In this document: positions 3,258 through 64,000 of the stretch, in pieces
Position numbering within the stretch: the first letter of the stretch is position 1
Layout: the number at the start of each line of letters is the position of its first letter
Source: Nannocystis bainbridge
Lineage (GTDB): Bacteria > Myxococcota_A > Polyangia > Nannocystales > Nannocystaceae
Direction: 5' to 3'
Assembly (NCBI RefSeq): GCF_028368995.1
Contig: NZ_JAQNDL010000002.1
Location: 545,724-609,723 of the forward strand
Length of the DNA: 64,000 nt
Position numbers and translations under genes: made by a program
The notes under the pieces: generated by a model
Told to the model about the DNA's origin: nothing
What the model saw: the letters and a program-made list of their open reading frames with translations, nothing else
The model's database searches: none

Positions 3258-3583
3258 GGCCCGGCAAAGCTAGCCGCGCGCGCCACGGGTGTCGAGGCGC
3301 GGCGCGGCGCGGCGCGGCGGCCCGCGGTGACGCGCGCCGACGCGATACCGGCGACGGATGACGTGGGTCGACGTTCGGCGCGGGGAGTGAGCGTGACGAG
3401 GCGGAGCGCGTGGCCGCACCGAGCCGGGTCGAGGACGGATGCCGAGCTCCGCGCGGAGGCTTCACGTCACGCGTCGGAGCCCTGTGCGCGGTGAGGCTTC
3501 GCGCGGACGCTCGGGTCGTGCTCCTCACTCGCGGGCCAGCTGTCCCGAAGGACATGTGGGCCCGGAGCCGCTGCGGCGGCCCT

Positions 3584-4165
3584 CTAGCTGGTCGCCTGCG
3601 GCAGGCGGCGGGGGCGGCGGTAGGGGGTGTTCTCCAGCGGGTTGTCGCCGACCAGCGAGGGGCCGAGGAGGTGCTCCATCAGGTTGAGCAGCTCGATGCG
3701 CTCCTCGTCGGTGCCGCGGGCGCGCGCGAGGTCGTAGAAGAAGGCCGGGATGGTGAGGGCCATGAACATGGCCACGAGGCCCAGCTTGGGGCCGGTGAGG
3801 CCGGTGAGGCCGAGCCAGGCCAGGCTGGTGGCCCACATGATCCAGAAGCTGGCCTGGCGGGCGAACGGGCCGCGGGTGAAGCGACACTGCACGGCGGTCC
3901 CCTGGGGCATCGGCACGAGCTCGGCCTCGAGGGTCATGCGGCGCATGATGGCCGGGCCGGTGTCGACCACGCCGGCGGTGACGTTCTGGCACACGCGGAA
4001 CTTGCGCGCGCCGAGCTCGGCGAGGAACCGGCGGCGGCTGCGGCTGCGGGCCGGGAAGCCCTCGAGCACCTGGATGTTGGCGTCGCCGCGGAGCCGCGCC
4101 AGGACCTCGGGGGGCGCGAGGTCGACGTGGTAGGTCAGCGCTTCGGGCAGGGCGCGCAGGGGCAC
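3584..4165 (-). CDS. hypothetical protein with C-terminal hydrophobic helices
   Basis: 193-aa ORF with natural composition and a WIMWATSLAWLGLTGL...LVAMFMALTIPAFFY segment. It lies 90 bp downstream of the SEDS gene on the same strand. Confidence 0.5.
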   Translation of the reverse strand: MPLRALPEALTYHVDLAPPEVLARLRGDANIQVLEGFPARSRSRRRFLAELGARKFRVCQNVTAGVVDTGPAIMRRMTLEAELVPMPQGTAVQCRFTRGPFARQASFWIMWATSLAWLGLTGLTGPKLGLVAMFMALTIPAFFYDLARARGTDEERIELLNLMEHLLGPSLVGDNPLENTPYRRPRRLPQATS

Positions 4166-4256
4166 GTGCGCGCGAGTATTGGCGATTTCCCCGGCGCTCG
4201 CCAGCGACTCGCGGTTCGGGCGACGCGCAGCGGGCGTGCGCCCGCTCGGCGGCGGC

Positions 4257-5588
4257 TCAGGAGCGCGCGACGCGGGCGTTGCGGCGAGGGCCGGCGGTGA
4301 CGGTGGCGGCGCGCTTCCACGGCCACCAGGCGCGGCGCGGCGGCTCGGCGGAGCGCTGGCGCCGGTCGGTCCGCGCCGGGCGCTCGGCCGCGGGGGCGCG
4401 GCTGCGCTGGTCGCTGATCCGCCACGGGCGCGGGCGGCGGGAGATCGAGAGCAGGATCCCGGTCGCGCCCATGCTGACGAGCAGCGAGGAGCCGCCGTAC
4501 GACAGGAACGGCAGGGTGATGCCCTTGGCCGGGATCACGTCGAGGACGACCGAGATGTTGATCAGGGCCTGGAAGCCGAACAGGGCCGACAGGGCGACGG
4601 CGAGGTAGGTGCCGAAGCGGTCGGGGGCGCCGCGGGCGGCCACGAGCCCGCGCCAGACCAGCAGGCAGAACAGGCCGATCACGGTCCACACGCCGACCAG
4701 GCCGAGCTCCTCGGCGATGCTGGCGAGGATGAAGTCGGTGTGGTTCTCGGGCAAAAACCCGAGCTTCTGCCGGCCGGCGCCGAGCCCGAGGCCCCATGTG
4801 CCGCCCGAGCCGACGGCGATCAGCGACTGCTGGATCTGGTACGACTGCTCGCCCGAGAGGAAGTCGAGCAGGCGGCCCTTGCGGAAGCCGACGCCGACGA
4901 TCTGCGACCAGGCCAGCGGCGCGGCCAGCATCATGGCGGCGACCACGTAGGTGATCCGCGTGCCGGCGACGAACAGCGCGGTGAGCGTCACGGCGCCGAG
5001 GAGGATCGTGGTGCCGAGGTCCTTCTCGAGCAGGACCAGGACCATGGTCAGCGAGGCGATCAGGAGCGGCGGGAGGAAGCCGGCCTTGAAGCGGCGCACG
5101 CGCTCGCCCTGGCGGGCCAGCATGGCCGAGAGGAACATCGCCAGGAACACCTTGGCGAGCTCGCTCGGCTGGATGTTGATGCCGGGGGCGCGGATCCACC
5201 GGCGGGCGCCGTTGACCTCGTCGCCGACGGCGAGCACGAGCAGCAGGCCCATGAGGCCGATGCCCATCAGGTGCGGGGCGAAGCGGCGGAAGATCCGGTA
5301 GTCGAGCCGCGACGTGAGGACCATGACGCCGGTGCCGAGCGCGAACAGCACGCTCTGGCGGCCGAGGAAATACTCCCAGTCGTGGTAGCGCACCCGCGCG
5401 GTGTAGACGCTGGCGCTGTAGACCATGACGAGGCCGAGGCAGGCCAGCGACATGGCGGCGAAGAACAGCCAGGGGTCCATGGCCCGCCGCTCCTCGCCCG
5501 CGTCCGCGACGAGCGACGGCGAACCCTCCTCGGGGTCGGCGACGAGGTCGCATCCCGGGTCGGGGGCCGCGGTCTCGTTGGGGGTCAC
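4257..5588 (-). CDS. SEDS-family peptidoglycan glycosyltransferase (FtsW/RodA/SpoVE)
   Basis: Motifs SELAKVFLAMFL, QSYQIQQSLIAVGSGGTWGLGLGAGRQKLGFLPENHTDFILASIAEELG, and GATGILLSI. About 10 TM helices. An alternative start MDPWLFF lies at about 5480. Confidence 0.88.
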   Translation of the reverse strand: MTPNETAAPDPGCDLVADPEEGSPSLVADAGEERRAMDPWLFFAAMSLACLGLVMVYSASVYTARVRYHDWEYFLGRQSVLFALGTGVMVLTSRLDYRIFRRFAPHLMGIGLMGLLLVLAVGDEVNGARRWIRAPGINIQPSELAKVFLAMFLSAMLARQGERVRRFKAGFLPPLLIASLTMVLVLLEKDLGTTILLGAVTLTALFVAGTRITYVVAAMMLAAPLAWSQIVGVGFRKGRLLDFLSGEQSYQIQQSLIAVGSGGTWGLGLGAGRQKLGFLPENHTDFILASIAEELGLVGVWTVIGLFCLLVWRGLVAARGAPDRFGTYLAVALSALFGFQALINISVVLDVIPAKGITLPFLSYGGSSLLVSMGATGILLSISRRPRPWRISDQRSRAPAAERPARTDRRQRSAEPPRRAWWPWKRAATVTAGPRRNARVARS

Positions 5589-5800
5589 GCCCAGGGCCCT
5601 CGCACAGGTGCGCGCGCGAGGCGAGTTTTCGGCGCAAACCGGGGGGCGCGCGGGCGCGCAGCGCCAGGTTGACAGCCGGGCGTGTCAACTTGACCGGAGG
5701 TCGTGCCCAAATGGCGCCGGAGCGGCCTCGGAGGGGCTTTTTGACGCTGTCGGCGGGGACTTGCGCGAGCCGGGGGGGTCGCGTCATCCTCACGGAGTCC

Positions 5801-6952: not shown

Positions 6953-7024
6953 GGCCTGTCCCCGCGGACAGGTGCGAGAGGGCATGTCCTGGCGGGCATG
7001 TTCTTGAGGGCAGGTGCCCGAGGG

Positions 7025-7206
7025 CATGTCCTCGGGGGCATGTCCTCGGAGCATGTCCTCGGAGCATGTCCTCGGAGCATGTCCTCGGAGCATGTCCTCG
7101 GAGCATGTCCTCGGAGCATGTCCTCGGAGCATGTCCTCGGAGCATGTCCTCGGAGCATGTCCTCGGAGCATGTCCTCGGAGCATGTCCTCGGAGCATGTC
7201 CTCGGG
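7025..7206 (+). repeat. 13-bp tandem array GCATGTCCTCGGA x ~13 (half-site of the GGACATGTCC palindrome), flanked by inverted-repeat hairpins
   Basis: Perfect units at 7038, 7051 ... 7194, with degenerate units upstream. The left flank has ggcctgtccccgcggacaggtgc and the right flank gacaggtgcgggggcacctctgtc. It is intergenic, between a stop at 6952 and the fghA start at 7319. Confidence 0.9.
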
Positions 7207-7318
7207 GACAGGTGCGGGGGCACCTCTGTCGCGGTGAGCAGGCTCGGCAGCAGCGGGCGGGCCGCGGCGCTCGCGGCGGGCTACCGCGCGGGGCCGCCCG
7301 GTGCTAGGGTCGCGGGTG

Positions 7319-8336: not shown

Positions 8337-8362
8337 CGCGACCTCTCGGATGGCCTGGCAGA

Positions 8363-9240: not shown

Positions 9241-10329
9241 TCAGAGCGGGACCAGGCAGTGGCCGAAATTTTCGAGGTCGGGCGGGGCCTCGCCGTCGGC
9301 GTAAGGGGAGAGGCACATCAGCTCGGGCGGGCAGGCGGGCTGGGATAGGTCGCAGTACGGGGTGCAGCAGGACGGGTCGGCGGGATTGCAGGTGGGGACG
9401 TATTCGGTGGAGACGCACAGGTGGCCGGGATCGCAGTCGTTCGTGGCGGAGCAGACCTCGGTGTAGGCGCCGCCGTCGCCCGAGATGTCTGGGACGCAGA
9501 CCGGGTCGAGGCCGACACAGACCTGTCCCATAGGACAGGCTGCGGGGCCGGCGAGCGGATCGCAGGTCGGCTCGCACAGGTGGATCTCGAGCTCGTCGTC
9601 GCCCCAGACCTGGCAATGGGTGGCCGGGTCGGCGCATTCGGGCGCGTCGGGGCTGCCGGTGCAGCGCGCGGTGCAGATGCCCTGCGCGGTGTCGGCGTCG
9701 ACGCGGCTGCACACGGCTCCCGGGGCGCAGTCGCCCCACGACCACGAGCCGTCGGAGGTGACGGTGCAGGGCTCGCCGACGGGGACGCCGGGGGCCGGGA
9801 CGGGCACGCACGACCACCGGTCGGCGAAGGGGTCGTCGTCGCGCGAGACCGGCAAGCAGGTGGTGCCCTCGGTGCGGCAGGCGTCGGGATCCCAGGGGTC
9901 GCAGCGGTTGTTCTGGGCGCAGAGCACGGCGTCGCCGAACTCGCAGGGATCGGCGTAGCCGCACTGATAGCCGCCGCAGATCTGGTGGACGCAGTCGAGG
10001 CTGCAGATGGTGTGGCGATCGCAGCCAGGAGGCAGCGGTACGCACTGGACCTCGGGATAGCCGACGCAGGCGTCGTCGGCCCCGACCCACTGGCAGAACT
10101 CGTCAGGGCCACACATGGCGCACGGATGTTCGGCGCCGCCGGTCGACGAATCGTCGGTGGTCGAGTCGTCGCTCGTGCCGGTCGTCGCGTCCGAGCTGCT
10201 GCTGGTGGAGACGGCCTGCGGCTCGGTGGTGTCCGCCGTGTCGCTCTCGGTGGCCGGGGCCTGGGAGCAGGCGACCAGAAGGAGGACCAGTGAGCTCGAT
10301 AACGCGCGGAGCAAAGACGGGCGGTCCAT
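9241..10329 (-). CDS. cysteine-rich repeat lipoprotein (CDPW..C / FEDVGxCxLP family paralog)
   Basis: Signal LVLLLVAC, an acidic S/T linker, many paired Cys, and a C-terminus ENFGHCLVPL resembling the genes at 24182 and 25129. Confidence 0.8.
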   Translation of the reverse strand: MDRPSLLRALSSSLVLLLVACSQAPATESDTADTTEPQAVSTSSSSDATTGTSDDSTTDDSSTGGAEHPCAMCGPDEFCQWVGADDACVGYPEVQCVPLPPGCDRHTICSLDCVHQICGGYQCGYADPCEFGDAVLCAQNNRCDPWDPDACRTEGTTCLPVSRDDDPFADRWSCVPVPAPGVPVGEPCTVTSDGSWSWGDCAPGAVCSRVDADTAQGICTARCTGSPDAPECADPATHCQVWGDDELEIHLCEPTCDPLAGPAACPMGQVCVGLDPVCVPDISGDGGAYTEVCSATNDCDPGHLCVSTEYVPTCNPADPSCCTPYCDLSQPACPPELMCLSPYADGEAPPDLENFGHCLVPL

Positions 10330-25128: not shown

Positions 25129-26109
25129 ATGGCCTCGCCGTCTCGCCGCCGAATCGTGTGGTTCTCTCTCGCCTTCGCCTGCGCTTGCGGCCCCAAACCG
25201 GCTGCCGAGACGACCGACGCCACTGACTCGGCGAGCACTGCCGAGCCGGGGAGCACCACCGGCGATACCACGGTCGTCGAGACCACCTCGACGACCGGCG
25301 GTACTTCGACGACCGCCGGCTCCACCGCGCCGAACCCTACCACCGCGAGTCCCACCACGAGCGACAGCGGCGATTCGACCGGCGCCACCGGTACTCCCTT
25401 CATCACGCCTCCCGACCTCGGCGGCGGAGGCTGTCCCAGAGCCGCCGCCAGCTCCTGCGACCCATGGACGCAGAATTGCCCCTCTGACGACAAGTGCGCG
25501 CCTTCGGGGGGCGGCTGCGGCGTCTTCACCAGAACAGTCTGCCACGAGCTGCCCGACCAGCCGGTGCCGCTCGGCGGCATCTGCGAATCGGAGGGTCATC
25601 CGCTGAGCGGCCGCAATGATTGCGAGCTCGGCACCACCTGCTGGTTCATCGATCCCGAGACCTTGATCGGCACCTGCGTCAGCCTGTGCCACGGTTCCCC
25701 CGTGGCCCCCGATTGCTCGCATGTCCCCGGCACCGCCTGCGTGCTCGTCCACGACGGCCTCGACGCCCCGCTGTGCCTGCCGACCTGCGACCCCTTCGCG
25801 CTGACCTGTCCCGAAGGACATCACTGCCACCCGAGCGCGCTCACCCCCGCGCTGTTCGCCTGCACCCCCGACGCCTCGCTCGGCGCCGCCTTCGAGGCGT
25901 GCGACAAGGCCGATTGCGCCGCCGGCCTGCTGTGCAGCGAGTCGGAGGCGGCCGCCGTCGAGTGCGCCCCCGACACGAACTGCTGCACCCCGCTGTGCGA
26001 CCTCGATACCCCCGATTGCCCCGGCGTCGGCCAGGTCTGCCTGCCGTACTACGAGATGGGCCAGGCGCCCGCCGGGCTCGAGGACGTCGGACGCTGCGGC
26101 CTGCCGTGA
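25129..26109 (+). CDS. cysteine-rich repeat lipoprotein (CDPW family paralog)
   Basis: MASPSRRRIVWFSLAFACACG, then SCDPWTQNCPSDDKC, ending LEDVGRCGLP. It lies 68 bp after the previous paralog, so the two are probably an operon. Confidence 0.8.
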   Translation: MASPSRRRIVWFSLAFACACGPKPAAETTDATDSASTAEPGSTTGDTTVVETTSTTGGTSTTAGSTAPNPTTASPTTSDSGDSTGATGTPFITPPDLGGGGCPRAAASSCDPWTQNCPSDDKCAPSGGGCGVFTRTVCHELPDQPVPLGGICESEGHPLSGRNDCELGTTCWFIDPETLIGTCVSLCHGSPVAPDCSHVPGTACVLVHDGLDAPLCLPTCDPFALTCPEGHHCHPSALTPALFACTPDASLGAAFEACDKADCAAGLLCSESEAAAVECAPDTNCCTPLCDLDTPDCPGVGQVCLPYYEMGQAPAGLEDVGRCGLP

Positions 26110-27902: not shown

Positions 27903-28060
27903 GCTGTCGGACATGTCTTCGGGGACATGTTCGGAGGGGCCGGTGGGTGTGGTGGTCGTTTCGGACATGTCTTCGGGGACATGTACGGAAGGACCGGTCG
28001 GTGCGGCGGACTTGGCGGACATGTCTGGGGAGACATGTGCGGAGGGACCGGTGGGCTGCC
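27903..28060 (+). repeat. ~54-bp tandem repeat x3, each unit carrying a double hairpin GGACATGTCTTCGGGGACATGTWCGG
   Basis: tcggacatgtcttcggggacatgttcgg... / tcggacatgtcttcggggacatgtacgg... / ggacatgtctggggagacatgtgcgg. It lies between the divergent PAP2 gene (-) and the gene starting near 28370 (+). Confidence 0.85.
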
Positions 28061-38478: not shown

Positions 38479-38572
38479 ACGACATGTCTCATGGGACATG
38501 CCTACAATGACATATCGTGAATGACATGTCGTGGAGAGCATGTCCACAAGGACATGCTCTTCGGGGCAGCCT
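38478..38572 (+). repeat. cluster of GACATGTC-type hairpin elements between convergent genes
   Basis: gacatgtctcatgggacatgcc ... atgacatatcgtgaatgacatgtcgtggagagcatgtccacaaggacatgctcttcgggg. Confidence 0.8.
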
Positions 38573-39469: not shown

Positions 39470-41317
39470 TCACGGCGCGGGCACGGGCTCGGCCCCGAGG
39501 TCGCGGGCGAGGTCGGCGAGCTCGCCGATGGGGACCTGCAGGGCGGGCAGGCGGGTGATGTCGGTCCGCGCGGCCTGGGCGATGGTCTCGCTGGCGCGCA
39601 TGACGAGGCCGCCGTGGGGATCGGCGACCACGGTGTAGCCGGCCTTGCGCAGGCGGGTGAGGCGAGCCTGGGCCGAGGGCGAGAGGTCGGTGGCGGTGAT
39701 GCGCAGGGAGGGCACGCGGCCGGGCCAGATGGCGGCGAGGTAGGCGGTGATCCGCGGGGGGTAGACGACGCCGCCGGCTGTCTTTTCGTTCAGGTGAACG
39801 TCGACCAGAGCGGGGTAGCCGCTGACGTCGCAGCGCACGGCGCCGTGGAGGTGGCTGGTCCACATGGCCTCGGGGCTGACAGGCGCGGGCCACAGGCCGT
39901 CGAACCACGCGGCGATGGCGTCGTAGCTGGGCAGGCGCTGGCCGCCGAGGGCGTCGCCGAGGCGCTGGACCTCGGCGCCGAACCGCTCGCCGCGCTCCTC
40001 ACGACGCAGGCGCAGGAAGATCGCAAGCACGGCGATCGCCGCGGCGAGGTACCACAGGCCGAACAGCAGCAGGCCGCCGCAGACGATGGCGACGAACAGC
40101 AGGCCGAGGCCGCCGCCCTGGACCTGCTGCTGGCGCCGCTCGTCGGCGTGGCGGGCCAGGAGGGCGCGGCGGGCCACGGCGAGGGCGCTGGCGGGGATCC
40201 GCCCCTCGGGCTCGGGTTCGGCGGCGTCGGGCCGGTCGGGGAGGATCGAGCGGACGGCGGCGAAGAGGGCGTGGGTGGCGACGGCGGGCTGGCCGTCGGC
40301 AGGCTCGCGCACGGCGGCGACGAGCAGCGGGGCCTCGGCCAGGCCGCCGGGCGGAGGGGCGAGCGCCGCGGTCTGGGCGGGCGCGCTCTGGCTGGCGCCA
40401 GGGCGGTTGTAGAGGATGGAGAGCAGCGAGGAGTTCGAGGGGTTGATCGCGGCGCCGGGGAGGGTGTCGCTGGCGCTGGTGCGAGCGGTCGGGTCGCGCG
40501 CGAGGCTGGCCCCGAAGACAGGTGCGTCGGCGGGCGCGGGCAGCGGGCCGGACAGGACGGCGGGGTCGAGGCGGGCGGCGGGATCGGGATCGGTGTCGGG
40601 GCCGGAGATGTCCGCAGGGACAGGTGGGGGCGGGAGGCCGGCGGGCAGGGTCTGCGCGGCGATGGGGATGTCCGCGGGGACAGGTTGGATGTCCGCGGGG
40701 ACAGGTGAGATGTCCACGAGGACAGGTGAATACGAGCTGTCTGCGGGGACATGTGAGATGTCCGCGGGGACATGTGAGATGTCCTCGGGGACAGGTGCGT
40801 CGGCGGCAGCACGTTCGCGGACGGCGTGCTCGGCGGCGGCGGGCCGGGGGCCGGGCGGGCGGCCGGGGCGTGAGCCGGGCTGGACGGCGGCGGCCGGGCC
40901 CTGCAGGGTGTCGCCGGGGTGGGGCGGGGCTTCGCCGGCGAGGTCGATGTCCTTGAGGACAGGTCGCACCGGGGCGGGGTCGGCAGGGGCGGGGGCGGGG
41001 CCGATCGAGAGCAGGGTGGTCGGCGGGACGGGCGCGGCGAGCAGGCTGGCGGCGAGCCCGGGCTGGTGGCGCACGCGGACCGGCGCGGCGAACTCGAGGT
41101 CGGGATCAGGGCTGTCTTTGGGGACAGGTGACCCCTGGACCAGGTCGCGCACGGCCTGCTGGATGGCCCGCTCGTAGAGGGCGAGGGCGTCGGCGACGGC
41201 CGGCGGCAGCCCATGCGATCGAGCGCACGCGGGGCAGTCAGCGGCGCCGCGGATGTCGTCGAGCGAGAGCGCGTGCTGACAGTGCGGGCAGCGCAACGCG
41301 AGGGTCGGAGAGAGCAC
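39470..41317 (-). CDS. zinc-ribbon / Pro-rich linker / single-TM / C-terminal domain protein
   Basis: CPHCQHALSLDDIRGAADCPACARSH (CxxC...CxxC), TM LGLLFVAIVCGGLLLFGLWYLAAAIAVLAIF. The linker contains PEDISHVPADISHVPADSSY, encoded by the hairpin repeats at 40600-40810. Confidence 0.65.
   Translation of the reverse strand: MLSPTLALRCPHCQHALSLDDIRGAADCPACARSHGLPPAVADALALYERAIQQAVRDLVQGSPVPKDSPDPDLEFAAPVRVRHQPGLAASLLAAPVPPTTLLSIGPAPAPADPAPVRPVLKDIDLAGEAPPHPGDTLQGPAAAVQPGSRPGRPPGPRPAAAEHAVRERAAADAPVPEDISHVPADISHVPADSSYSPVLVDISPVPADIQPVPADIPIAAQTLPAGLPPPPVPADISGPDTDPDPAARLDPAVLSGPLPAPADAPVFGASLARDPTARTSASDTLPGAAINPSNSSLLSILYNRPGASQSAPAQTAALAPPPGGLAEAPLLVAAVREPADGQPAVATHALFAAVRSILPDRPDAAEPEPEGRIPASALAVARRALLARHADERRQQQVQGGGLGLLFVAIVCGGLLLFGLWYLAAAIAVLAIFLRLRREERGERFGAEVQRLGDALGGQRLPSYDAIAAWFDGLWPAPVSPEAMWTSHLHGAVRCDVSGYPALVDVHLNEKTAGGVVYPPRITAYLAAIWPGRVPSLRITATDLSPSAQARLTRLRKAGYTVVADPHGGLVMRASETIAQAARTDITRLPALQVPIGELADLARDLGAEPVPAP
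40600..40810 (+). repeat. tandem hairpin units GAGATGTCC-NCGGG-GACAKGT (~19 bp, about 8 copies) embedded in frame in a coding linker
   Basis: ggatgtccgcggggacaggtgagatgtccacgaggacaggtgaa...ggggacatgtgagatgtccgcggggacatgtgagatgtcctcggggacaggtg. Confidence 0.85.
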
Positions 41318-44799: not shown

Positions 44800-45060
44800 G
44801 GGTGAGGGGCCTGTCCTTCGGGACAGGCGGGGCGCGGTGCGGACGGGGGCATGGGATGTCCCGAAGGACATGTCCTTCGGGATGAGACGCGGCGACGCTG
44901 GTGAGAGCGCGGGATGTCCCGGAGGACATGCTCTTGGGGACATTGTCAATAGTCACCGGCGTGGGATGTCCCGGAGGACATGTCCCTCAAGACATGCACG
45001 GGCCGGCGAGTCCGTGGTGGCGCGCGGACAAGCATGTCCCTCAGGACATGTCCTCAGGGC
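44800..45060 (+). repeat. BIME-like cluster of palindromic elements (core GGACATGTCC; 24-bp perfect palindrome TCCCGAAGGACATGTCCTTCGGGA)
   Basis: ggcctgtccttcgggacagg; gggatgtcccgaaggacatgtccttcgggatg; gggatgtcccggaggacatgctcttggggacat; gggatgtcccggaggacatgtccctcaagacatg; gcatgtccctcaggacatgtcctcagg. Confidence 0.9.
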
Positions 45061-45269
45061 CAGTCGTCGAGATCGAGGCCGCGGGACAGCTCGGGGTCGT
45101 CGGCCAGGAGGTCGCGCAGGGTCGCCTCGCGCAGGCCGAGGGCGCGGGCGCCGGCGCTCACGCTGGCCTGGGCGGCGAGCACGGCCCGGACCTCGCGGCG
45201 GAAGGCGAGCGGGTCGGTGCGGCGCAGGGCCAGCAGCAGCGGTTCACGAGGCTCGGCGGGCAAGGTCAC
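45054..45269 (-). CDS. possible small Fis-like HTH protein (71 aa)
   Basis: LAAQASVSAGARALGLREATLRDLLADDPEL resembles a Fis-type HTH. It could be a GC-driven spurious ORF. Confidence 0.25.
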   Translation of the reverse strand: MTLPAEPREPLLLALRRTDPLAFRREVRAVLAAQASVSAGARALGLREATLRDLLADDPELSRGLDLDDWP

Positions 45270-45950: not shown

Positions 45951-45986
45951 TGTCCAAAAGGACAGGCTGGCTGTTCGCAGGGACAG

Positions 45987-46214: not shown

Positions 46215-46216
46215 GG

Positions 46217-46722: not shown

Positions 46723-47173
46723 GGCAAAGGTCGCGGAACGCCTGGCCTGCAGGCGCTGGCGTCGATGCGGGCGCGAGTGAACACGGAAGTAAAGTTCGCG
46801 GAGATGTGGCACGGGGCACACAGATCTGCTCCAAGCGCGAGCGAGCGCGACGGCGCGCCTGGGCCGTGGCTCATCTCGTACAGGCGAGCGAAGTACGGTG
46901 GCTCTCGAGGGCCGCCGTACCTGACTCTTGGGGCAGGTCACATGCTGGCTCGCGGATGATGATCGGGGCGTTCACGCGGGTTGTGTTGGGTGACGCCACG
47001 CGGTGGGTCGTGGTCGCGCCGAATTGCGAGGTCGAGCCGGATGGCCCATGGGACATGTTCGTGCGGACAGGTAGCGAGCATGCAGCCGTCTCGCTACCCG
47101 TCCTACGAGGCGCAGGCGAGCCGGTGTTGGCATGACCTCGCGCTGCGGGCTCAGGCGGCGCGGGCGCGGGCGT

Positions 47174-56133: not shown

Positions 56134-56421
56134 ATGACAGATGCCGCCCCGCCCGACGCGCTGGTCCGCGAGATCAAGGAGCTCATCATCGAGGCCCTGA
56201 TGCTGCAGGACATGACCCCCGAGGACATCGACCCCGAGGCGCCGCTGCTGGTCGAGGGGCTGGGTCTGGACTCGATCGACGTGCTCGAGCTGGCGATGGC
56301 GATCGGCAAGAAGTACGGCGTCAAGACCCGGGCCGATGACGCGCAGAACCGGCACATCTTCGCCAGCGTGACCAACCTGGCCCGCTTCGTCCAAGAACAG
56401 CGCGCTGCGGCGGCGGGCTGA
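56134..56421 (+). CDS. acyl carrier protein
   Basis: Phosphopantetheine attachment motif LGLDSIDVLEL. 95 aa, acidic. Confidence 0.85.
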   Translation: MTDAAPPDALVREIKELIIEALMLQDMTPEDIDPEAPLLVEGLGLDSIDVLELAMAIGKKYGVKTRADDAQNRHIFASVTNLARFVQEQRAAAAG

Positions 56422-56429
56422 GGCCGGGC

Positions 56430-57080: not shown

Positions 57081-58999
57081 GGTCCTTCGTCCCGCTCGTC
57101 CACACCGATCCCGCGGCGCCGGTCGCCGTGGGCGAGGCCGTGCGCACGGCGGGCGAGCTGATGCGCGACGCGCGAGCGGTGGCTGCCAGGCTGCCGGCGG
57201 CGACCGCGGGCAGCGAGGTGCTGGTGGTCTGCGGCGATCGCTACCACCTGGCAGTGACGACCCTGGCGGCGTGGCTGCGCGGCCACGCGGTCGCGCTGCC
57301 GCCCAACGCCCAGCCGGCGGCGGTGCGCGCGCTGGCCGGGCGAGCCTCGGTGGTCGCGCTGCTGCACGACTCGGACCTGGCTGACGCGCAGGACGTCCGC
57401 GAGTGGCTCCCGGAGCATGTCCCCGGGGACATGACCGATCCGACATGGCCCGAAGCGCTGGCGGCGGACCGCCGGCTGGCGGTGGTGTACACCTCGGGCA
57501 GCACCGGCGACCACCAGCCGTGCGTCAAGACGGCGGCGCAGCTGCTCGGCGAGGCGCAGACGCTGGCGGCCACGTTCGCGCTGCGGGCCGGCGAGGTGGC
57601 GCTGGCGACGGTGCCGCCGTATCACCTGTACGGGCTGCTGTTCGGGATCCTGGCGCCGCTGGCCGCCGGGGCGGCGTTCGCCCGCGAGACGCCGCTGCAC
57701 GCCGAGACGGTGGCCCACGTGGCGCGTCAGGTGGCGGCGACGGTGCTGGTCAGCACGCCGGCGCACCTGCGCGGGCTGACGGTGCTGCAGCGCGGCGACC
57801 TGCCGCCGCTGTCGCGGGTGTTCTCGTCGGGCGCGCCGCTGCCGCGGGCGACCGCGGACGAGCTGTTGACGGGGCTCGGGCTGCAGGTGACCGAGGTGTA
57901 CGGCTCGTCCGAGACCGGCGGGATCGGCTGGCGTCGGCACGAGGATGTCTCGGGGGACATGTCCCCGGAGACAGCCTGGGCGCCGCTGCCGGGGGTCGCG
58001 GCCGAGGTAGCGAGCGACGGGCGGCTGCTGCTGCGCTCGCCGTTCCTGGCCCCGGACGCGCCGGTGCCGTACCCGTGCGAGGACCGGATCGAGCTCGACG
58101 CGCGCGGCGGGTTCCACCTGCGCGGGCGGCTCGACGGGGTGGTGAAGATCGCCGGCAAGCGGGTGGCGGTCGCCGAGGTCGAGCAGCGGCTGCTGGCGCT
58201 GACGGCGGTGGCCGACGCGGCGGTGGTGGCGGTCGAGTCGCCGGGGGCCCGCGGGCACGAGCTGGTGGCCGCGATCGTGGGCCGCGAGGCCGGGCGCGAC
58301 GCCGGCGAGCTGGTCGCGGAGCTGCGCCGGGCGCTGCTGCCGTGGTTCGACCCGGTGGTGGTGCCGCGGCGGATCAAGGTGGTGCCGGCGCTGCCGCGCG
58401 AGCCGAGCGGGAAGCTGACGCGGCGCAAGCTGCACGCGCTGCTCGGGCTCGACGCGCCAGCGGGCGCGGAGAATGAAGGCACGGCGGCCGGGCGAGGTGG
58501 CGCGAGGGACATGTCCGCGGGGACAGCCAACGAGGCCGCAGGCGGCGTGAAGGACATGTCCTCGGGGACAGCCGCGGCGGGCACGCCGGCGACCGAAGGA
58601 GATGGCGCGAGGGACATGTCCTCCGGGACATCGAGTGAGACCCGCGCGTTCGCGCTGCGCGGGCACGTGCGGCGCGACGACGGCGAGGCTTCGGTGCACG
58701 AGGTCGAGGTCGGGGTGCCGGTCGACCTGGCGTTCTTCCGCGGGCACTTCGAGGGGCGGCCGGTGCTGCCGGGGGTGGCGCAGCTGACGGCGCTGGTGGT
58801 GCCGCAGGTGGCGGCGCTGCGGCCGGAGCTGGGGCGGCTGCGGCGGGCGGCGCGGCTCAAGTTCACCCGGCCGATCGCGCCGGGCGACGCGCTGGTGCTG
58901 CGGCTCGAGGTCCGCGGGACGCAGGTTCGCTTCTCGCTGGCGCGCGCGGGCGAGGTGGTCACGGCGGGCGCGCTCGAGTACGACGCGCGCGGTGGTTGA
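57077..58999 (+). CDS. AMP-dependent synthetase/ligase fused to C-terminal FabZ/FabA-like hotdog dehydratase
   Basis: AMP-binding motif VVYTSGSTGDHQPC and EVYGSSETGG. C-terminal FFRGHFEGRPVLPGVAQLTAL. The interdomain linker carries RDMSAGT/KDMSSGT/RDMSSGT copies of the palindromic element. Confidence 0.8.
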   Translation: MRSFVPLVHTDPAAPVAVGEAVRTAGELMRDARAVAARLPAATAGSEVLVVCGDRYHLAVTTLAAWLRGHAVALPPNAQPAAVRALAGRASVVALLHDSDLADAQDVREWLPEHVPGDMTDPTWPEALAADRRLAVVYTSGSTGDHQPCVKTAAQLLGEAQTLAATFALRAGEVALATVPPYHLYGLLFGILAPLAAGAAFARETPLHAETVAHVARQVAATVLVSTPAHLRGLTVLQRGDLPPLSRVFSSGAPLPRATADELLTGLGLQVTEVYGSSETGGIGWRRHEDVSGDMSPETAWAPLPGVAAEVASDGRLLLRSPFLAPDAPVPYPCEDRIELDARGGFHLRGRLDGVVKIAGKRVAVAEVEQRLLALTAVADAAVVAVESPGARGHELVAAIVGREAGRDAGELVAELRRALLPWFDPVVVPRRIKVVPALPREPSGKLTRRKLHALLGLDAPAGAENEGTAAGRGGARDMSAGTANEAAGGVKDMSSGTAAAGTPATEGDGARDMSSGTSSETRAFALRGHVRRDDGEASVHEVEVGVPVDLAFFRGHFEGRPVLPGVAQLTALVVPQVAALRPELGRLRRAARLKFTRPIAPGDALVLRLEVRGTQVRFSLARAGEVVTAGALEYDARGG

Positions 59000-59027
59000 T
59001 ATGGTCGGAGGGACGGACGAGCGCGAG

Positions 59028-59825
59028 ATGGCCCGAGGGCCAGGTGACGTGTCCGCCGGGACAGCCGCGTTCCGGCCGTGCGCGCTGATCCCGACCTACG
59101 ACAACCCGCGGACGGTGCGCGACGTGGTGCTGCGGGTCAAGGCGCACCTGCCCGCCGTGGTGGTGATCGACGACGGCTCGGGCCCGGAGGGGCGGGCGGC
59201 GGTCGAGGCGATCGGGGCCGAGGGGCTGGCGCACGTGCGCCGGCGGACGCAAAACGGCGGCAAGGGGGCGGCGGTCAAGACCGGGTTCCAGTTCGCCCAC
59301 GAGCTCGGCTACACCCACGCGCTGCAGGTCGACGCCGACGGGCAACATGACCTCGGGGACATCCCGCGCTTCCTCGCGACCGCGCAGGCGCGGCCGGACG
59401 CGCTGGTGCTGGGGGCCCCGGTGTACGACGCCTCGGCGCCGAAGGGCCGGCTCATCGCCCGCAAGATCACCCTGTTCTGGACCGACTTCGAGGCCGGGCG
59501 CGGCGTCATCACCGACCCGATGTGCGGCTTCCGGGTCTACCCGCTGACGCCGGCGCTGGCGCTCGGGCGCACCGGCGACCGCATGGACTTCGACATCGAG
59601 ATCGCGGTGCGGCTGGTGTGGGCCGGGGTGCCGGTGATCAACCTGCCGACGAAGGTCCGCTATATCGGCCGCGACGAGGGCGGGGTGTCGCACTTCCGGG
59701 TGTTCGGCGACAACGTCAAGATCTCGTGGCTGCACACCCGGCTGTCGTTCCAGCGGGTGATGGTGCGCCCGTGGCTCGACCTCTACCGCCGCCTGCGCCG
59801 CCCGGCGCTGCCAGCCGGCCGCTGA
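59028..59825 (+). CDS. family-2 glycosyltransferase
   Basis: CALIPTYDNPRTVRDVVLRV...VVVIDDGSGPEG...QVDADGQHD has the GT2 DxD architecture. Confidence 0.75.
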   Translation: MARGPGDVSAGTAAFRPCALIPTYDNPRTVRDVVLRVKAHLPAVVVIDDGSGPEGRAAVEAIGAEGLAHVRRRTQNGGKGAAVKTGFQFAHELGYTHALQVDADGQHDLGDIPRFLATAQARPDALVLGAPVYDASAPKGRLIARKITLFWTDFEAGRGVITDPMCGFRVYPLTPALALGRTGDRMDFDIEIAVRLVWAGVPVINLPTKVRYIGRDEGGVSHFRVFGDNVKISWLHTRLSFQRVMVRPWLDLYRRLRRPALPAGR

Positions 59826-60083
59826 CCGAGAGGACAGGTTCGATCGGCCATGGCGCAGCAGGCAGGTTTGAAAGGACATGTCCCGGGGGACAGCCGCGAC
59901 GAGGCCGCGAGCGGCGGAGCGGCGGCCGGCGCGGGCGGAGCGAACGGGCGCGGGGCGATGGTCGGCGCGGGCGGCGGGGCAGCGGCCGGTGATGCGAGCG
60001 AGCGCGGGCCGATGGTCGTGGCGAGCGGCGGTGGGGAGAGCCAGGCGGCGGTCGTCGCGGGCGCGGGCGGCGATCGGGCGTGG

Positions 60084-60962: not shown

Positions 60963-62488
60963 GTAACGCGCGCGTGCTGCTGGTGGGGCCCGCCGGGCTC
61001 GGCCTCGACGACGTGATCCAGCTGGCCGAAGGGACAGCCTTCCCGGCGCTCGACGACGCGCCGGAGTACCGGGCGCTGTTGGCCCGCGGCGCCGATCACC
61101 TGGCGCGGCGGCTGGCCGCGGGCGAGGTCGTGTACGGGGTCACGACCGGGTTCGGCGACTCGTGCGAGACGGCGGTGCCGGCCGAGCACGTGCCGTCGAT
61201 GCCGGTCAACCTGATGCGCTTCCACGGCTGCGGCACCGGGCGGATCCTCGACGAGGTCGAGGCGGCCGCGGTGGTCGCGGTGCGGCTGGTGGCGCTGGCG
61301 CGCGGCTGGTCGGGCGTGCGGGTCGAGGTGCTCGAGCGGCTGTGCGACTTGCTGAGGCACCGCCTGTTGCCGCGGATCCCCGCCGAGGGCTCGGTCGGGG
61401 CCAGCGGCGACCTGACGCCGCTGTCGTACGTGGTCGCGGCGCTGGTCGGCGAGCGCGAGGTCTGGTTCAAGGGACAGGTGGCGCCGGCGGCCGAGGCCCT
61501 GCGCGCGGCCGGCATCCCGCAGCTGACGCTGCAGCCCAAGGAGAGCCTGGCGCTGATGAACGGGACCAGCGTCATGGTCGGGCTCGGTTGCCTGGCGGTC
61601 GCCCGCGCGCAGCGGCTGGCGCGCCTGTGCGCGGCGCTGACGGCGATGGGCAGCGACGTGCTCGGCGGCAACCCCGCTCACTTCGACGACCGCATCTTCG
61701 CCGCCAAGCCGCACCCGGGCCAGAGAGCCGTGGCGGGGTGGATCCGCGAGGATATCGAGTTCCCGCGGCCCGCAGCCCCCGCGCGCATCCAGGACCGTTA
61801 TTCGATCCGCTGCGCCCCGCACGTGATCGGGGTCCTCGTCGACGCGCTACCCTGGGTCCGGCAGTGGCTCGAGGTCGAGATCGTCGGCGCCAACGACAAC
61901 CCGCTGGTCGACCCGGAGACCGGCGAGGTGCTGCACGGCGGCAACTTCTACGGCGGGCACGCCTGCTTCGCGCTCGACGCCCTGAAGACGGCGGTGGCCA
62001 ACCTCGCCGACCTCGTCGATCGCCAGGTCGCGCTGGTCTGCAACCCCGACACGAACGCGGGCCTGCCGGCCAACCTGGTCGCGCGCACCGGCCCCGATCG
62101 CGCGGCGCATCACGGCTTCAAGGCGATGCAGATCTCGACCTCGGCGCTGGCGGCCGAGGCGTTGAAGCTGACGATGCCGGCCAGCGTCTTCAGCCGCAGC
62201 ACCGAATGCCACAACCAGGACAAGGTGAGCATGGGCACGATCGCGGCGCGCGACTGCCTGCGGATCGTCGAGCTGACCGAGACGGTCGCCGCGATCGGGC
62301 TGCTCACCATGTGCCAGGCGGTCGACCTGCGCTCGGGTCACAACGTGCACGCGCGGGCGCGCACGCTCCACGAGGCGGTCCGCAGGGTGGTGCCGATGGT
62401 CGACGCCGACCGCCGCCAGGACCACGACATCGCCGCGGTGTTGACGCTGATGCGCGCGGGCGCGTTGCCGATCGGAGCGCTGCCGTGA
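60959..62488 (+). CDS. MIO-dependent aromatic amino-acid ammonia-lyase (HAL/PAL/TAL family)
   Basis: MIO motif GSVGASGDLTPLSYVVAALVG, NGTSVMVGLG, and GGNFYGGHACFALD. GTG start overlaps the preceding stop (GTGA). Confidence 0.88.
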   Translation: MSNARVLLVGPAGLGLDDVIQLAEGTAFPALDDAPEYRALLARGADHLARRLAAGEVVYGVTTGFGDSCETAVPAEHVPSMPVNLMRFHGCGTGRILDEVEAAAVVAVRLVALARGWSGVRVEVLERLCDLLRHRLLPRIPAEGSVGASGDLTPLSYVVAALVGEREVWFKGQVAPAAEALRAAGIPQLTLQPKESLALMNGTSVMVGLGCLAVARAQRLARLCAALTAMGSDVLGGNPAHFDDRIFAAKPHPGQRAVAGWIREDIEFPRPAAPARIQDRYSIRCAPHVIGVLVDALPWVRQWLEVEIVGANDNPLVDPETGEVLHGGNFYGGHACFALDALKTAVANLADLVDRQVALVCNPDTNAGLPANLVARTGPDRAAHHGFKAMQISTSALAAEALKLTMPASVFSRSTECHNQDKVSMGTIAARDCLRIVELTETVAAIGLLTMCQAVDLRSGHNVHARARTLHEAVRRVVPMVDADRRQDHDIAAVLTLMRAGALPIGALP

Positions 62489-62889
62489 GCCGCCTTCACG
62501 AGGTCTCGGTCGAGTTCGAGGTCCCGTTCCACGATGTCGACATCCTCAACATCGTCTGGCACGGGCACTACTACAAGTACATGGAGATCGGCCGGACCGC
62601 GCTGATGCGCTCGCGCGGGCTCGACGTCGCCGACATCCGCGGCGCGGGTTACGCCCTGCTGCTGGTCGACAGCCACTGCCGCTACACCTACCCGCTGCGC
62701 TACGCCGACCGCGCCCGCGTCGACGCGTGGTTCGTCGCGGTTGCGCCGCGCCTGGTCGTGGCCTATCGCATCCGCAACCTCAAGGACGACCGCTGCTCGG
62801 CTCGCGGGCAGACGATCCTCGTCACCACCGACCAGGATGGTCGCCTCTTGCAGGAGACGCCCGATGCTCTGCTCCAGCGGCTGGTATAG
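62485..62889 (+). CDS. 4-hydroxybenzoyl-CoA thioesterase-like hotdog thioesterase
   Basis: VSRLHEVSVEFEVPFHDVDILNIVWHGHYYKYMEIGRTALM has the YbgC/4HBT fold signature. GTG start overlaps the ammonia-lyase stop. Confidence 0.7.
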   Translation: MSRLHEVSVEFEVPFHDVDILNIVWHGHYYKYMEIGRTALMRSRGLDVADIRGAGYALLLVDSHCRYTYPLRYADRARVDAWFVAVAPRLVVAYRIRNLKDDRCSARGQTILVTTDQDGRLLQETPDALLQRLV

Positions 62890-62944
62890 CCCACGCTCCC
62901 GTCTGTCCTTCCGGACAGGTCTTTTCAGACATGTCCTCACGGTC

Positions 62945-63637
62945 ATGGCGGTCACGATCGCCGCGGTCGCGCCGCTCGGCCAGGCCCAGGCGGTCGAGCC
63001 GCTGCCGGTGACGGTCGCGGCGCCGCTGGTCACCAGCATCACGCTCGACCAACTGCTGGGCCAGTTCGCCGGCATGAGCGGGCTGCAGGCGACGTTCCGC
63101 GAGGAGAAGCGGATGGCGCTGCTGGCGGCGCCGCTGGTCAACGAGGGCACCATCTATTTCGTGCCGAACGGCAAGAAGCCGCGCCTGGCCCGCCACACGG
63201 CCAAGCCGGCGCGCTCGGTGGTGGTGATCGACGGCTCGGCGCTCAAGCTGGCCGACGACGCCGGCCGCGAGGAGATCGCGCTCGACAAGAGCCCGATGGT
63301 GCGGCTGTTCATCGACTCGTTCATCAAGATCTTCGCCGGCGACCGCGAGGCGCTGACGAACATGTACGCGATGGACCTGCAGGCCGAGGGCCAGCGCTGG
63401 ACGCTGAAGCTGAAGCCGAAGCTGACGCCGCTCGACAAGCTGATCGAGCGGGTCGAGATCGCCGGCGACGGGGTCGTGATCGCGTCGATGCGGGTGGTCG
63501 AGGTCGGCGGCGACGAGGCCGTGACCACGTTCTCGGCCGTCGACGCGACCCGCAAGTTCTCCACCGAGGAGCTGACGGCGCTGTTCAGCCTGCCGCCGAA
63601 GCCGGCCCCGGTCGCGGCCGCGCCGGCGAGCCGCTGA
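62945..63637 (+). CDS. LolA-like outer-membrane lipoprotein carrier family protein
   Basis: MAVTIAAVAPLGQAQA then TFREEKRMALLAAPLVNEGTIYFVPNGKKPRLA...RWTLKLKPK. A hairpin CTGTCC-TTCC-GGACAG sits immediately upstream. Confidence 0.65.
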   Translation: MAVTIAAVAPLGQAQAVEPLPVTVAAPLVTSITLDQLLGQFAGMSGLQATFREEKRMALLAAPLVNEGTIYFVPNGKKPRLARHTAKPARSVVVIDGSALKLADDAGREEIALDKSPMVRLFIDSFIKIFAGDREALTNMYAMDLQAEGQRWTLKLKPKLTPLDKLIERVEIAGDGVVIASMRVVEVGGDEAVTTFSAVDATRKFSTEELTALFSLPPKPAPVAAAPASR

Positions 63638-63658
63638 GGCGGCCTTCCGCACCTGCTC

Positions 63659-64000
63659 CATGGAACCTGCCCGATCAGACAGGCCGAGCGCATGGCGGGC
63701 GGGGATCGGCGCGGCGATCGTCGCCGGGCTGGCGGCGTTCTGCGCCCTGCGCCTGCAGGTGGTCACCGACATCACCGCGTTCATGGCCGACGTCGCCGAC
63801 CCCAAGCTGGCGGCGCTGTCGCGCGGGATGGCCAGCTCGGAGCTGACGCGCACGCTGGTGCTGTCGGTCTCGGACGAGCGCGGCGAGCCGGACGTGGCGA
63901 TCGCCGGGGCGCGGGCGCTGGCCGATCGGCTGCAGAACCGGCCCGAGGTGGCGTGGCTGCGCACGGGGCCGGGCGAGCTGCACGCCGAGGCGATCCACAA
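63659..64000 (+). CDS. MMPL/RND-type exporter, partial (continues beyond window end)
   Basis: MEPARSDRPSAWRAGIGAAIVAGLAAFCALRLQVVTDITAFMADVADPKLAALSRGMASSELTRTLVLSV matches the N-terminus of aryl-polyene-cluster exporters. Confidence 0.65.

Follow-up and report, generated by a model that had tools for sequence, protein, structure and literature searches.

The 64,000-nt stretch of genomic DNA from the myxobacterium Nannocystis bainbridge analyzed here (the window; G+C content 66%–78%) contains a dispersed, highly iterated family of short palindromes, which is expanded in the Nannocystis lineage. The unit of this element consists of two invariant 5-nt arms, TGTCC and GGACA, with exactly four free nucleotides between them (TGTCC-N4-GGACA). 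The family, which is of the REP/HIP-like kind, is apparently undescribed: no literature description of the motif in bacteria was found, and among the literature matches listed, its decamer GGACATGTCC occurs as a p53 half-site and never in bacteria. A dispersed and highly iterated palindromic family had been proposed in the first-pass annotation of this DNA, and the proposal was borne out for the whole genus.

Background frequencies were obtained from 100 dinucleotide-preserving shuffles and from Markov simulations of order 1, 3, and 4. The decamer GGACATGTCC, for which at least eight exact copies had been claimed, is present eight times in the window (44866, 44976, 45044, 57955, 58507, 58552, 58612, and 59874, all within 6 bp of the positions first given), whereas 0.09 copies (maximum 1) are expected from the shuffles, which corresponds to an approximately 90-fold excess. 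With up to one mismatch, 22 decamers were counted compared with 3.2 expected. TGTCC-N4-GGACA is the most common inverted repeat of two 5-mers separated by N4 in the window and exceeds the background words composed of G and C only. Its 26 perfect copies contrast with an expectation of about 0.04 (0.02–0.18 in the Markov models of order 1, 3, and 4; more than 100-fold excess), and 52 copies with up to one mismatch contrast with 1.65. Chance or base composition as the origin of the repeats was ruled out by the dinucleotide shuffles and the Markov order 1–4 models. The frequency is also far above expectation in at least eight Nannocystis genomes.

The anatomy of the element was deduced from a pooled set comprising the window and 66 Nannocystis loci (≤8 kb each; 568 kb in total). 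These loci had been obtained via a motif scan, and the ascertained copies were left out of the statistics where relevant. In the pooled set, TGTCC-N(k)-GGACA occurs 219 times at k = 4 and at most twice each at k = 3, 5, and 6. The loop of variable length (4–7 nt) assumed earlier was not recovered, since the spacer is 4 nt long in 26 of the 27 window matches. The reverse arrangement, GGACA-N(k)-TGTCC, shows 133 copies at k = 0. Secondary spacing peaks at N9 (direct repeats) and at N14 (GGACA...TGTCC) are explained by the chain GGACA/TGTCC-N4-GGACA/TGTCC, which predicts both. It follows from this spacing pattern that the decamer GGACATGTCC, previously taken for the center of the element, is the junction between two abutting TGTCC-N4-GGACA units. 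The full form is a 24-bp palindrome, GGACATGTCC-N4-GGACATGTCC, with an array period of 14 bp; the minimal unit measures 14 bp and the unit with flanks 20 bp. By far the most common is the simple two-arm form of 14 bp, which accounts for 243 of about 440 non-ascertained arrays.

A position frequency matrix of 139 non-ascertained copies revealed a weak symmetric extension, R-C-M before TGTCC and K-G-Y after GGACA, and no conservation beyond ±3. The arms CACCTGTCCC and GGGACAGGTG described at first do occur, but represent merely one flavor of the degenerate flank RCM...KGY. Accordingly, the stricter pattern CCTGTC.{4,8}GACAGG, the count of which had been proposed as a check, finds only three sites in the window because the arm-adjacent positions of the two sides are A/C and G/T, respectively. 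The loops are highly diverse. Their outer positions favor Y...R, without covariation (45 complementary pairs vs. 46.3 expected). Single arms are not enriched, with 202 unpaired GGACAKG compared with about 170–207 expected, and a classical uptake sequence was ruled out on this ground.

The copies in the window are listed below. Genes were called with a crude procedure based on the G+C content of third codon positions (GC3), in which stop codons are exact; since the motif contains codons ending in A/T, called genes tend to be cut short where a copy occurs. ORF denotes an open reading frame.

3541..3554: perfect copy, TGTCC-CGAA-GGACA, 29 nt past the stop codon of the minus-strand ORF 3584–4174.
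6957..6970: perfect copy with an 8-bp stem (CCTGTCC CCGC GGACAGG), 4 nt past the TAG of a plus-strand ORF ending at 6952; RNA fold of −16.2 kcal/mol.
6980..7210: intergenic field of motif-derived repeats with degenerate GGGCATGTCC units, a tandem array, and a perfect copy (7197–7210) at its end.
7024–7205: 13-bp × 13.9 tandem array of GCATGTCCTCGGA, 98% identical; the unit is the 14-bp unit minus 1 nt.
9524..9537: perfect copy in a minus-strand ORF, read as C-P-M-G-Q (frame TGT CCN NNN GGA CAx).
25807..25820: perfect copy in a plus-strand coding frame, read as C-P-E-G-H.
27905..28055: 54-bp × 2.8 tandem array of GGACATGTCT-TCGG-GGACATGT units, in which 27914 and 27968 are the positions of 1-mismatch copies; its translation is the repetitive HVPEDMS/HVSPDMS linker of the minus-strand ORF 27042–28178, which follows a signal-peptide-like N-terminus.
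38485..38554: convergent gap between ORF 33136–38478 (plus strand) and ORF 38576–39439 (minus strand) with GACATGTC-like decamers at a 14-bp period; RNA folds of −48.8 kcal/mol (z −5.9) and also −26 kcal/mol.
38541–38554: perfect copy, the stem of which is lengthened to 14 bp by further complementarity.
40604..40797: six perfect copies (40609, 40669, 40690, 40711, 40759, and 40780) and one 1-mismatch copy in the minus-strand ORF 39470–41317, encoding PVPADI/HVPADIS heptads in a low-complexity linker.
40667–40797: 21-bp × 6 tandem array of GATGTCCGCGGGGACAGGTGA, which holds the last five of these perfect copies and the 1-mismatch copy.
40948–40961 and 41113–41126: two further copies in ORF 39470–41317, perfect and with one mismatch, respectively; both are kept at the orthologous positions of N. 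radixulma, where the flanks have diverged.
44810..45062: intergenic cluster following the M16 peptidase gene (stop codon at 44792) with perfect copies at 44812, 44857, 44915, 44967, and 45035 and exact decamers at 44866, 44976, and 45044; a 1-mismatch copy at 45049 overlaps the apparent stop codon of a small minus-strand ORF; RNA fold z −5.4.
45951..45985: perfect copy (45951) and 1-mismatch copy (45972), starting with the first base after the TGA of the PDZ-domain ORF 45288–45950 (plus strand).
47042..47069: two overlapping 1-mismatch copies, TGGCC-CATG-GGACATGTTC-GTGC-GGACA, about 105 nt past the stop codon of the minus-strand ORF 47174–48982.
57418..57431: perfect copy in the AMP-binding domain ORF 57077–58999, read as H-V-P-G-D-M; decayed in N. 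punicea, N. exedens, and N. pusilla.
57946..57973: compound copy, TGTCT-CGGG-GGACATGTCC-CCGG-AGACA, with the exact decamer at 57955.
58507..58630: three GGACATGTCC-N4-GGACA units, read as (R/K)DMSxGT, in the linker between an AMP-ligase and an ApeI/FabA dehydratase.
59050..59063: perfect copy at the 5′ end of the GT2 glycosyltransferase gene; ACGTGTCC corresponds to ACATGTCC in N. punicea.
59874..59892: GGACATGTCC-CGGG-GGACA between the GT2 stop codon (59825) and the acyltransferase gene; conserved in N. punicea, N. exedens, and N. pusilla.
62904–62917 and 62932–62945: two hairpins, perfect and with one mismatch, respectively, between the stop codon of the 4HBT thioesterase gene (62889) and the start of the LolA-like gene; the last base of the second hairpin is the A of the LolA-like ATG.

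Most of the near-copies reported in the first-pass annotation are real (3541, 6957, 7197, 25807, 40609–40793, and 40948, as well as 41113, 44812, 45951, 47056, 59823, and 62904). Those at 10474, 11269, 17519, and 18793 are degenerate with two or more mismatches, and lone arms were found at 23405, 28215, 33123, 49363, and 61475.

The taxonomic range was determined by scanning 185,579 species genomes for exact matches to GGACATGTCCNNNGGGACA. At least 99 stretches matched, and 66 of the 99 matches listed belong to Nannocystis (N. exedens, N. pusilla, N. punicea, N. radixulma, strain RBIL2, and several metagenome-assembled genomes, MAGs). The remaining listed matches are single chance occurrences in unrelated phyla; the Nannocystis stretches hold additional copies besides the matched one, whereas the others do not. 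The motif is therefore not confined to the locus in which it was noticed. Syntenic loci of about 22 kb each were retrieved via the AMP-ligase/dehydratase protein, of which the window version and an NCBI protein of N. bainbridge are 100% identical; these loci are thus not biased toward the motif. Nine perfect copies (0.41 per kb) were found in each of the loci from N. exedens (L100) and N. pusilla (L101), which equals the density in the window. A distant Nannocystaceae MAG (L125) has two perfect copies and six with up to one mismatch, and an outgroup with 62% G+C (L126) has none. Extrapolation to genomes of 11–13 Mb gives about 5,000 perfect copies per genome. Among viral contigs, 23 motif matches were obtained, of which the multi-copy ones represent other repeat systems composed of GGGGACA or GAGGACA fields, the others being single matches. 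One viral or mobile contig (L109 6800–8300; IMGVR_UViG_3300010045_000008) carries dense GAGGACA/TGTCCTC heptamers in both orientations over about 1.5 kb. This field is a separate repeat system, perhaps iteron- or clt-like, which matched the pattern by chance. GGGGACA/TGTCCCC repeats were seen in L111, L123, and L124.

The perfect copies of the pooled set are concentrated at the 3′ ends of genes. A position 0–50 nt past a predicted stop codon was found for 55 of the 219 copies and a position at 50–100 nt for 16 further ones. The motif is present in 61% of the convergent gaps (5.7 copies per kb), in 31% of the gaps between genes of the same direction (tandem gaps, 2.7 copies per kb), and in 10% of the divergent gaps (0.59 copies per kb), and coding sequence contains 0.5 copies per kb. 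This placement is the distribution described for repetitive extragenic palindromic (REP) elements. In the window, 10 of the 37 genes carry a copy within 100 nt after the stop codon, and independent gene calls for the N. exedens locus resulted in the same 3′-end placement.

Copies inside proteins are less frequent. Strong same-frame GC3 periodicity on both sides places 31 of the 219 perfect copies (~14%) firmly in ORFs, compared with 46% of random positions by the same criterion. All three frames are occupied, so that the tolerance within genes suggested initially was confirmed, as was, by inspection, the absence of stop codons from every frame of the core. The frame xTG TCC NNN NGG ACA (M/L-S-x-G/R-T) and the frame GTC CNN NNG GAC (V-P/L-x-D) are represented by 13 copies each, and the frame TGT CCN NNN GGA CAx (C-P-x-G-H/Q) by five. 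The in-ORF copies use rare A/T-ending codons in a genome with a GC3 of about 93%. Since one DNA motif is read in all three frames, the constraint acts on the nucleotides and not on the peptide. The in-ORF copies are located in linkers and loops that the outgroup proteins lack. According to protein alignments, the fusion of ligase and dehydratase is ancestral and the outgroups are essentially devoid of a linker, whereas the linker of the core Nannocystis species comprises 45–110 extra residues derived from three to five motif units. The linker of N. radixulma is short and has no motif units, and the unit number ranges from 0 to 5 among Nannocystis species. The indels in this linker between N. 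bainbridge and N. punicea (6, 15, 9, and 6) are all multiples of three, which indicates that the linker is translated, and its DMSxG(T/A) peptide is kept between species. In the AMP-binding domain, the unit 57946..57973 encodes six loop residues, EDVSGD, that are extra in Nannocystis compared with the outgroups (EDVSGDMSPE with the flanking codons).

A comparison of gene junctions with the outgroup loci demonstrated that elements were gained together with new DNA. At the AMP-FabA/GT2 junction, the outgroup genes overlap by 8 nt, whereas some Nannocystis species have spacers with motif hairpins; in N. exedens, the overlap is retained according to the gene calls, and the hairpin lies within the 5′ end of GT2. 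Outgroup overlaps of 4 nt (GT2/acyltransferase) and 44 nt (4HBT/LolA) are likewise replaced by hairpin-containing spacers in Nannocystis. Where present, the junction spacers are about 55–290 nt long. The AMP-FabA/GT2 junction of N. punicea is enlarged by a block of about 170 bp, which carries three additional hairpins and lies upstream of the site matching 59050. In the gap after the PDZ-domain gene, N. bainbridge has two hairpins, N. pusilla four in units of about 70 bp, and N. exedens three perfect and two 1-mismatch copies. Motif-derived tandem arrays are common, with units of 13, 14, 21, 54, and about 70 bp; one of them, a 14-bp × 20.6 array of GCGAGGACATGCGC in N. pusilla (L101 5848–6128), lies just past a gene stop and is built from one arm. 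From the junction spacers, insertions, and arrays, it can be concluded that the elements were acquired in the lineage and then expanded locally by duplication or slippage.

Once present, the arms are more conserved than their surroundings. For 34 query copies in alignable DNA of N. bainbridge, N. exedens, and N. pusilla, the identity was 0.826 in the arms (281/340), 0.706 in the ±3 extension (144/204), 0.673 in the flanks (1007/1496), and 0.551 in the loops (75/136); an earlier sample gave 0.83 for the arms compared with 0.68 for the flanks. At the 4HBT/LolA junction, all three species have two hairpins that agree in their arms, whereas the loops read ttcc, gcca, and gcct and the flanks have diverged. 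Decay in one species was noted for some copies, among them that at 57418. Among about 3,700 distant within-genome pairs from eight genomes, none matched in arms, loop, and 6-nt flanks with up to one mismatch. Of 15 indels ≥8 bp in alignments of orthologous loci (≥80% identity), 2 involved the motif, both in repeat-rich and poorly aligned DNA. Recent transposition is ruled against by the scarcity of motif indels together with the lack of distant copies sharing loop and flanks. The region 47057–56207 (~9.15 kb) is free of copies, whereas about seven would be expected at window density; it includes 6.6 kb (49332–55933) rearranged or inserted in N. bainbridge only.

The predicted RNA folds differ between the two classes of copies. 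Intergenic copies usually form stems of 8–14 bp (−13.7 to −26 kcal/mol) and coding copies the 5-bp core alone (−5.8 to −9.4 kcal/mol). Intergenic arrays fold far better than their shuffles (z −5.4 and −5.9), and intergenic copies pair better out to five positions beyond the core; this extra pairing is largely due to neighboring half-sites of the 24-bp form and does not constitute independent evidence for structure. Only 4%–9% of the hairpins are followed by four or more T within 10 nt. A terminator scan of 36–50 kb found one site (1.8 expected), so that canonical T-tailed terminators are essentially absent from this part of the window. The Rfam search gave no match at the gathering threshold and no tRNA was detected in the window, which rules out a known RNA family or a tRNA-linked element.

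Among the known systems, the overall working likeness is greatest to REP elements and bacterial interspersed mosaic elements (BIMEs). REPs are high-copy stem-loop palindromes of 20–40 bp with a GTAG/CGTC tag at one end; they are mostly extragenic, downstream of ORFs and between convergent and unidirectional genes, and are known inside genes, too (PMC3733652, which treats rickettsial REPs as well). The Nannocystis palindromes resemble REP/BIME elements in that they are short, present in high copy number, and capable of forming hairpins (−6 to −26 kcal/mol), often touch stop codons, are clustered in alternating orientation, and sometimes occur inside ORFs (PMC3733652). In contrast to REPs, the tag and an asymmetric head are missing, so that formally they do not belong to this class, the specified part amounts to 10 nt plus a fixed 4-nt gap instead of 20–40 bp, and the loops are fully free. 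The initial description as REP-like therefore applies to the 3′ ends and to the ranking of convergent over tandem over divergent gaps, but not to the tag. In contrast to REPINs, identical full-length copies at distant sites are lacking.

The cyanobacterial highly iterated palindrome HIP1 (GCGATCGC) is a contiguous octamer, which occurs mostly inside genes and is linked to orphan methyltransferases. The two share the taxon-specific hyper-abundance of a short palindrome, its presence in genes in several frames, a conservation between genomes exceeding that of the surroundings, and the lack of evidence for a peptide or RNA role (PMC5861425). Unlike HIP1, the Nannocystis motif consists of two parts separated by a spacer, shows an approximately 10-fold enrichment in 3′ intergenic gaps, forms tandem arrays, and is associated with inserted DNA; its strong bias to 3′ intergenic DNA is a difference from the HIP-like character considered at first. 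The genus or family "dialects" and the density (about 0.4–0.8 per kb here, the same order) are reminiscent of DNA uptake sequences and uptake signal sequences (DUS/USS). In Neisseriaceae and Pasteurellaceae, these form terminator-like inverted pairs just after genes and are tolerated in ORFs, but they work and are enriched as single asymmetric 9–12-mers, whereas only the paired form is enriched in Nannocystis. Rickettsia palindromic elements are in-frame gene insertions of about 100–150 bp that add surface peptide segments and are recognizable as full-length copies. In-frame protein insertions are common to both, but the Nannocystis units are 14–24 bp long, about a tenth of that size, and vary in copy number between lineages. 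The geometry of 5-bp inverted half-sites around a 4-bp free center with independent half-site preferences corresponds to the 5-N4-5 operators of CRP/FNR proteins (the FNR box is TTGAT-N4-ATCAA). The Nannocystis motif differs from these in its sequence, in the thousands instead of tens of sites, and in the avoidance of promoter regions. Resolvase res half-sites (TGTCYNNTA) did not fit in spacing, copy number, or location, and none of LexA (CTGT-N8-ACAG), MrpC (GTGTC-N8-GACAC), and transposon TG...CA termini fits; they were treated as leads only.

Taken together, these results resolve the underlying mechanism only partly. Our preferred interpretation, to which we give somewhat less than an even chance, is that of a Nannocystis-specific, REP-like palindrome family (near relatives included) that was gained in the lineage, amplified by slippage, kept by a putative symmetric reader encoded outside the window, and retained mainly at 3′ ends; its in-frame copies would be tolerated in disordered parts of proteins. 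The arms would be maintained by a symmetric, sequence-specific reader acting in trans, most likely a dimeric protein that recognizes the duplex or the extruded hairpin. Candidates would be a Y1 nuclease/transposase of the REP type or some other DNA-binding protein, the gene of which would lie elsewhere in the genome. New copies may arise rarely and then multiply locally by slippage to tandem arrays, and copies might persist where a stable hairpin is harmless or helpful. In transcribed intergenic regions, the stems of 8–14 bp could act as tail-less 3′ hairpins that stabilize or end transcripts, while copies in ORFs would retain the minimal 5-bp core only. The exact spacing, the free loop, the independent half-sites, and the rarity of compensation fit better with a symmetric sequence-specific reader than with an RNA for which structure alone counts. 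The placement at stop codons and the longer intergenic stems fit a role as RNA 3′ hairpin or plain tolerance. Recognition as DNA and action as RNA hairpin would not be mutually exclusive: in the case of REPs, the nuclease binds the DNA form, and the transcripts function as RNA hairpins.

Several observations weigh against this interpretation. No REP-associated tyrosine transposase (RAYT), the Y1 (HUH) enzyme the gene of which is flanked by the repeats in REP/RAYT systems (REPtrons), and no other candidate reader was seen in the window, and no transposase-like family was found among its Pfam-scanned ORFs. The GTAG/CGTC tag and asymmetry of any kind are absent from the 139-copy matrix, in which the T at position −2 required for CGTC amounts to 9%, and the element is shorter than classical REPs. 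Because distant copies share neither loop nor flanks, there has been no recent copy-and-paste beyond the bare arms, unlike in REPIN populations. The stems are not followed by a T-tract (mean of 1.3–1.7 T per 10 nt vs. 1.45 expected), which rules out a canonical terminator. The sense strand displays no preference for G.U-compatible over incompatible transitions (11:17 in same-direction gaps and 22:25 in coding sequence), a test that carries no information should the 1-mismatch copies be dead. Relative to single variants, compensatory double variants are rare, with the exception of TGCCC/GGGCA (9 vs. ~1 expected). Consequently, the RNA-hairpin action considered in the first-pass annotation gained no support from wobble bias, T-tract, or compensatory change. 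The 3′ bias could reflect tolerance rather than function. Furthermore, the split between coding and intergenic copies is approximate owing to gene calls truncated at motifs, and the arm identity is possibly inflated because aligners may anchor on the motif in poorly alignable DNA.

A different view, which we consider rather unlikely, is that the palindromes are operator-like duplex sites of an abundant dimeric protein that punctuates the ends of transcription units, each site being selected individually. The protein might be nucleoid-associated, act as a topological or insulator factor, or terminate transcription as a road-block, and the geometry is that of 5-N4-5 sites of dimers of the CRP/FNR type. 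The invariant arms, the exact 4-bp spacing, the free center with its independent Y...R preferences at the outer spacer positions, and the background level of lone arms would all be expected for such sites, as would the near lack of compensatory evolution and of G.U bias on the sense strand. Orthologous arms that are conserved while loops change, and distant copies that share no loops or flanks, likewise agree with sites evolving in place. However, promoter-containing divergent gaps are avoided and stop codons favored, unlike for known regulators, and thousands of sites per genome would have to be served. Selection for binding does not obviously explain the insertions in ORFs and operon junctions or the tandem arrays, the 14-bp abutting period would place neighboring dimers on different faces of the helix, and no candidate protein was identified. 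A molecular-drive motif of the HIP1 or uptake type, accumulating wherever tolerated by a process linked to uptake, recombination, mismatch repair, or methylation and not through effects of single sites on adjacent genes, appears distinctly unlikely. It would account for the restriction of the hyper-abundance to a single genus and the low-density "dialect" of a distant relative, for the occupation of all ORF frames with rare A/T-ending codons despite the high GC3, for the missing copy-and-paste signature, and for the lack of copies in 47057–56207 with its lineage-specific DNA. Uptake sequences also pair into terminator-like inverted repeats. The conservation above background matches that of HIP1 (PMC5861425). 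Nevertheless, uptake words are asymmetric and enriched singly, and with lone arms at background level, the drive would have to recognize the whole palindrome. The preference for 3′ gaps (10-fold) and for sites near stop codons is stronger than in HIP1, which is mainly intragenic, and a drive acting on point mutations does not explain new spacer DNA or in-frame insertions.

If the stem were merely shared by descent and acted through RNA structure alone, as a tail-less terminator or stabilizing 3′ hairpin without a specific reader, the location 0–30 nt past stop codons, the enrichment in convergent gaps, the stable predicted hairpins, and the few canonical terminators nearby would be accounted for, as would the moderately raised numbers of paired positions in the flanks and of TGCCC/GGGCA double variants. 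Such an RNA would, however, permit loops of 3–6 nt and compensatory stems, whereas the spacing is exactly 4 nt and the arms are the same in thousands of copies, although the loops are saturated with change. Given also the missing G.U bias and U-tract and the coding copies with stems of only 5 bp, we regard this explanation as very unlikely. A repeat maintained at the protein level (a short linear motif, e.g., DMSxGT) or one that simply results from the extreme base composition has a practically negligible probability. The in-frame units of the AMP-ligase linker with their conserved peptide could be read in favor of the former, but the same DNA encodes PVPxDI, HVPEDMS, MSxGT, or CPxGH in other genes and roughly half of the copies are intergenic; the composition models predict fewer than 0.2 copies. 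Both are refuted by the frame analysis and the intergenic copies.

Returning to the preferred REP-like family with a putative reader, the invariant arms, exact spacing, free loops, orthologous conservation, and stop-codon placement point to sequence-specific recognition. An extended and rather improbable possibility is that the approximately 5,000 sites, adjacent to stop codons and served by a dedicated symmetric reader, a dimeric protein binding DNA or hairpins, constitute a genome-wide punctuation of gene ends for factor-dependent termination, insulation, or supercoil management, or else a palindromic drive signal for uptake or repair. The motif would then be a selected cis-code undescribed in Myxococcota and not a selfish repeat, and the in-ORF copies would mark the places where this code is imposed on coding sequence. 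Nannocystis genomes (11–13 Mb) are among the largest bacterial genomes and are mined for natural products. A palindrome every ~2.5 kb, which carries ATG/GTG and rare codons, affects gene calling and bears on operon boundaries, the evolution of protein linkers, and the stability of cloned or engineered clusters, the latter because the 13–70-bp tandem arrays look prone to recombination and slippage. The motif visibly reshapes Nannocystis proteins and operons and, with several sequenced species at useful divergence, the genus offers a second independent system, in addition to cyanobacterial HIP1 and enterobacterial REPs, in which the maintenance of hyper-abundant palindromes can be studied.

Besides the palindromes, further features of the window were recorded. 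The last part (56134–64000) contains a conserved aryl-polyene-like lipid cluster, the gene order of which is kept from the outgroups to Nannocystis. It encodes an ACP, the fusion of AMP-ligase and ApeI/FabA dehydratase, a GT2 glycosyltransferase, a lipid-A-type acyltransferase, an aromatic amino-acid ammonia-lyase (60749–62488), a 4HBT thioesterase, and a LolA-like protein (62945–63637), which is followed by an MMPL transporter in the syntenic loci. The segment 49332–55933 is rearranged in N. bainbridge only, as compared with N. exedens, N. pusilla, and N. punicea. Here, the KR (adh_short) gene (51760–52612) lies in inverted orientation between two blocks of extra DNA (2.4 kb and 3.3 kb), which contain ORFs without Pfam match and one DUF4185 protein (53330–55054). 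An 87-nt inverted repeat (51944–52030/55844–55930, 85% complementary) represents a duplicated piece from near the 5′ end of KR. A small Xre-type HTH gene and a membrane-protein gene (45986–46833) are located between the motif clusters 45951–45985 and 47042–47069; the pair is also found in N. pusilla (L101 4875–5524) and was not called in the equivalent gap of N. exedens. A giant minus-strand ORF (13725–23477; 3,215 amino acids, scanned from 23372) consists largely of TPR repeats. It is mirrored by an ORF on the opposite strand, as is usual in high-GC DNA, and includes only 1-mismatch motif copies. Tandem repeats unrelated to the motif are present in coding or near-coding DNA at 30467–30735, 13052–13291, 33784–33942, and 32059–32233, with units of 18/30/36 bp, 99 bp × 2.5, 75 bp × 2.1, and 96 bp × 1.8.

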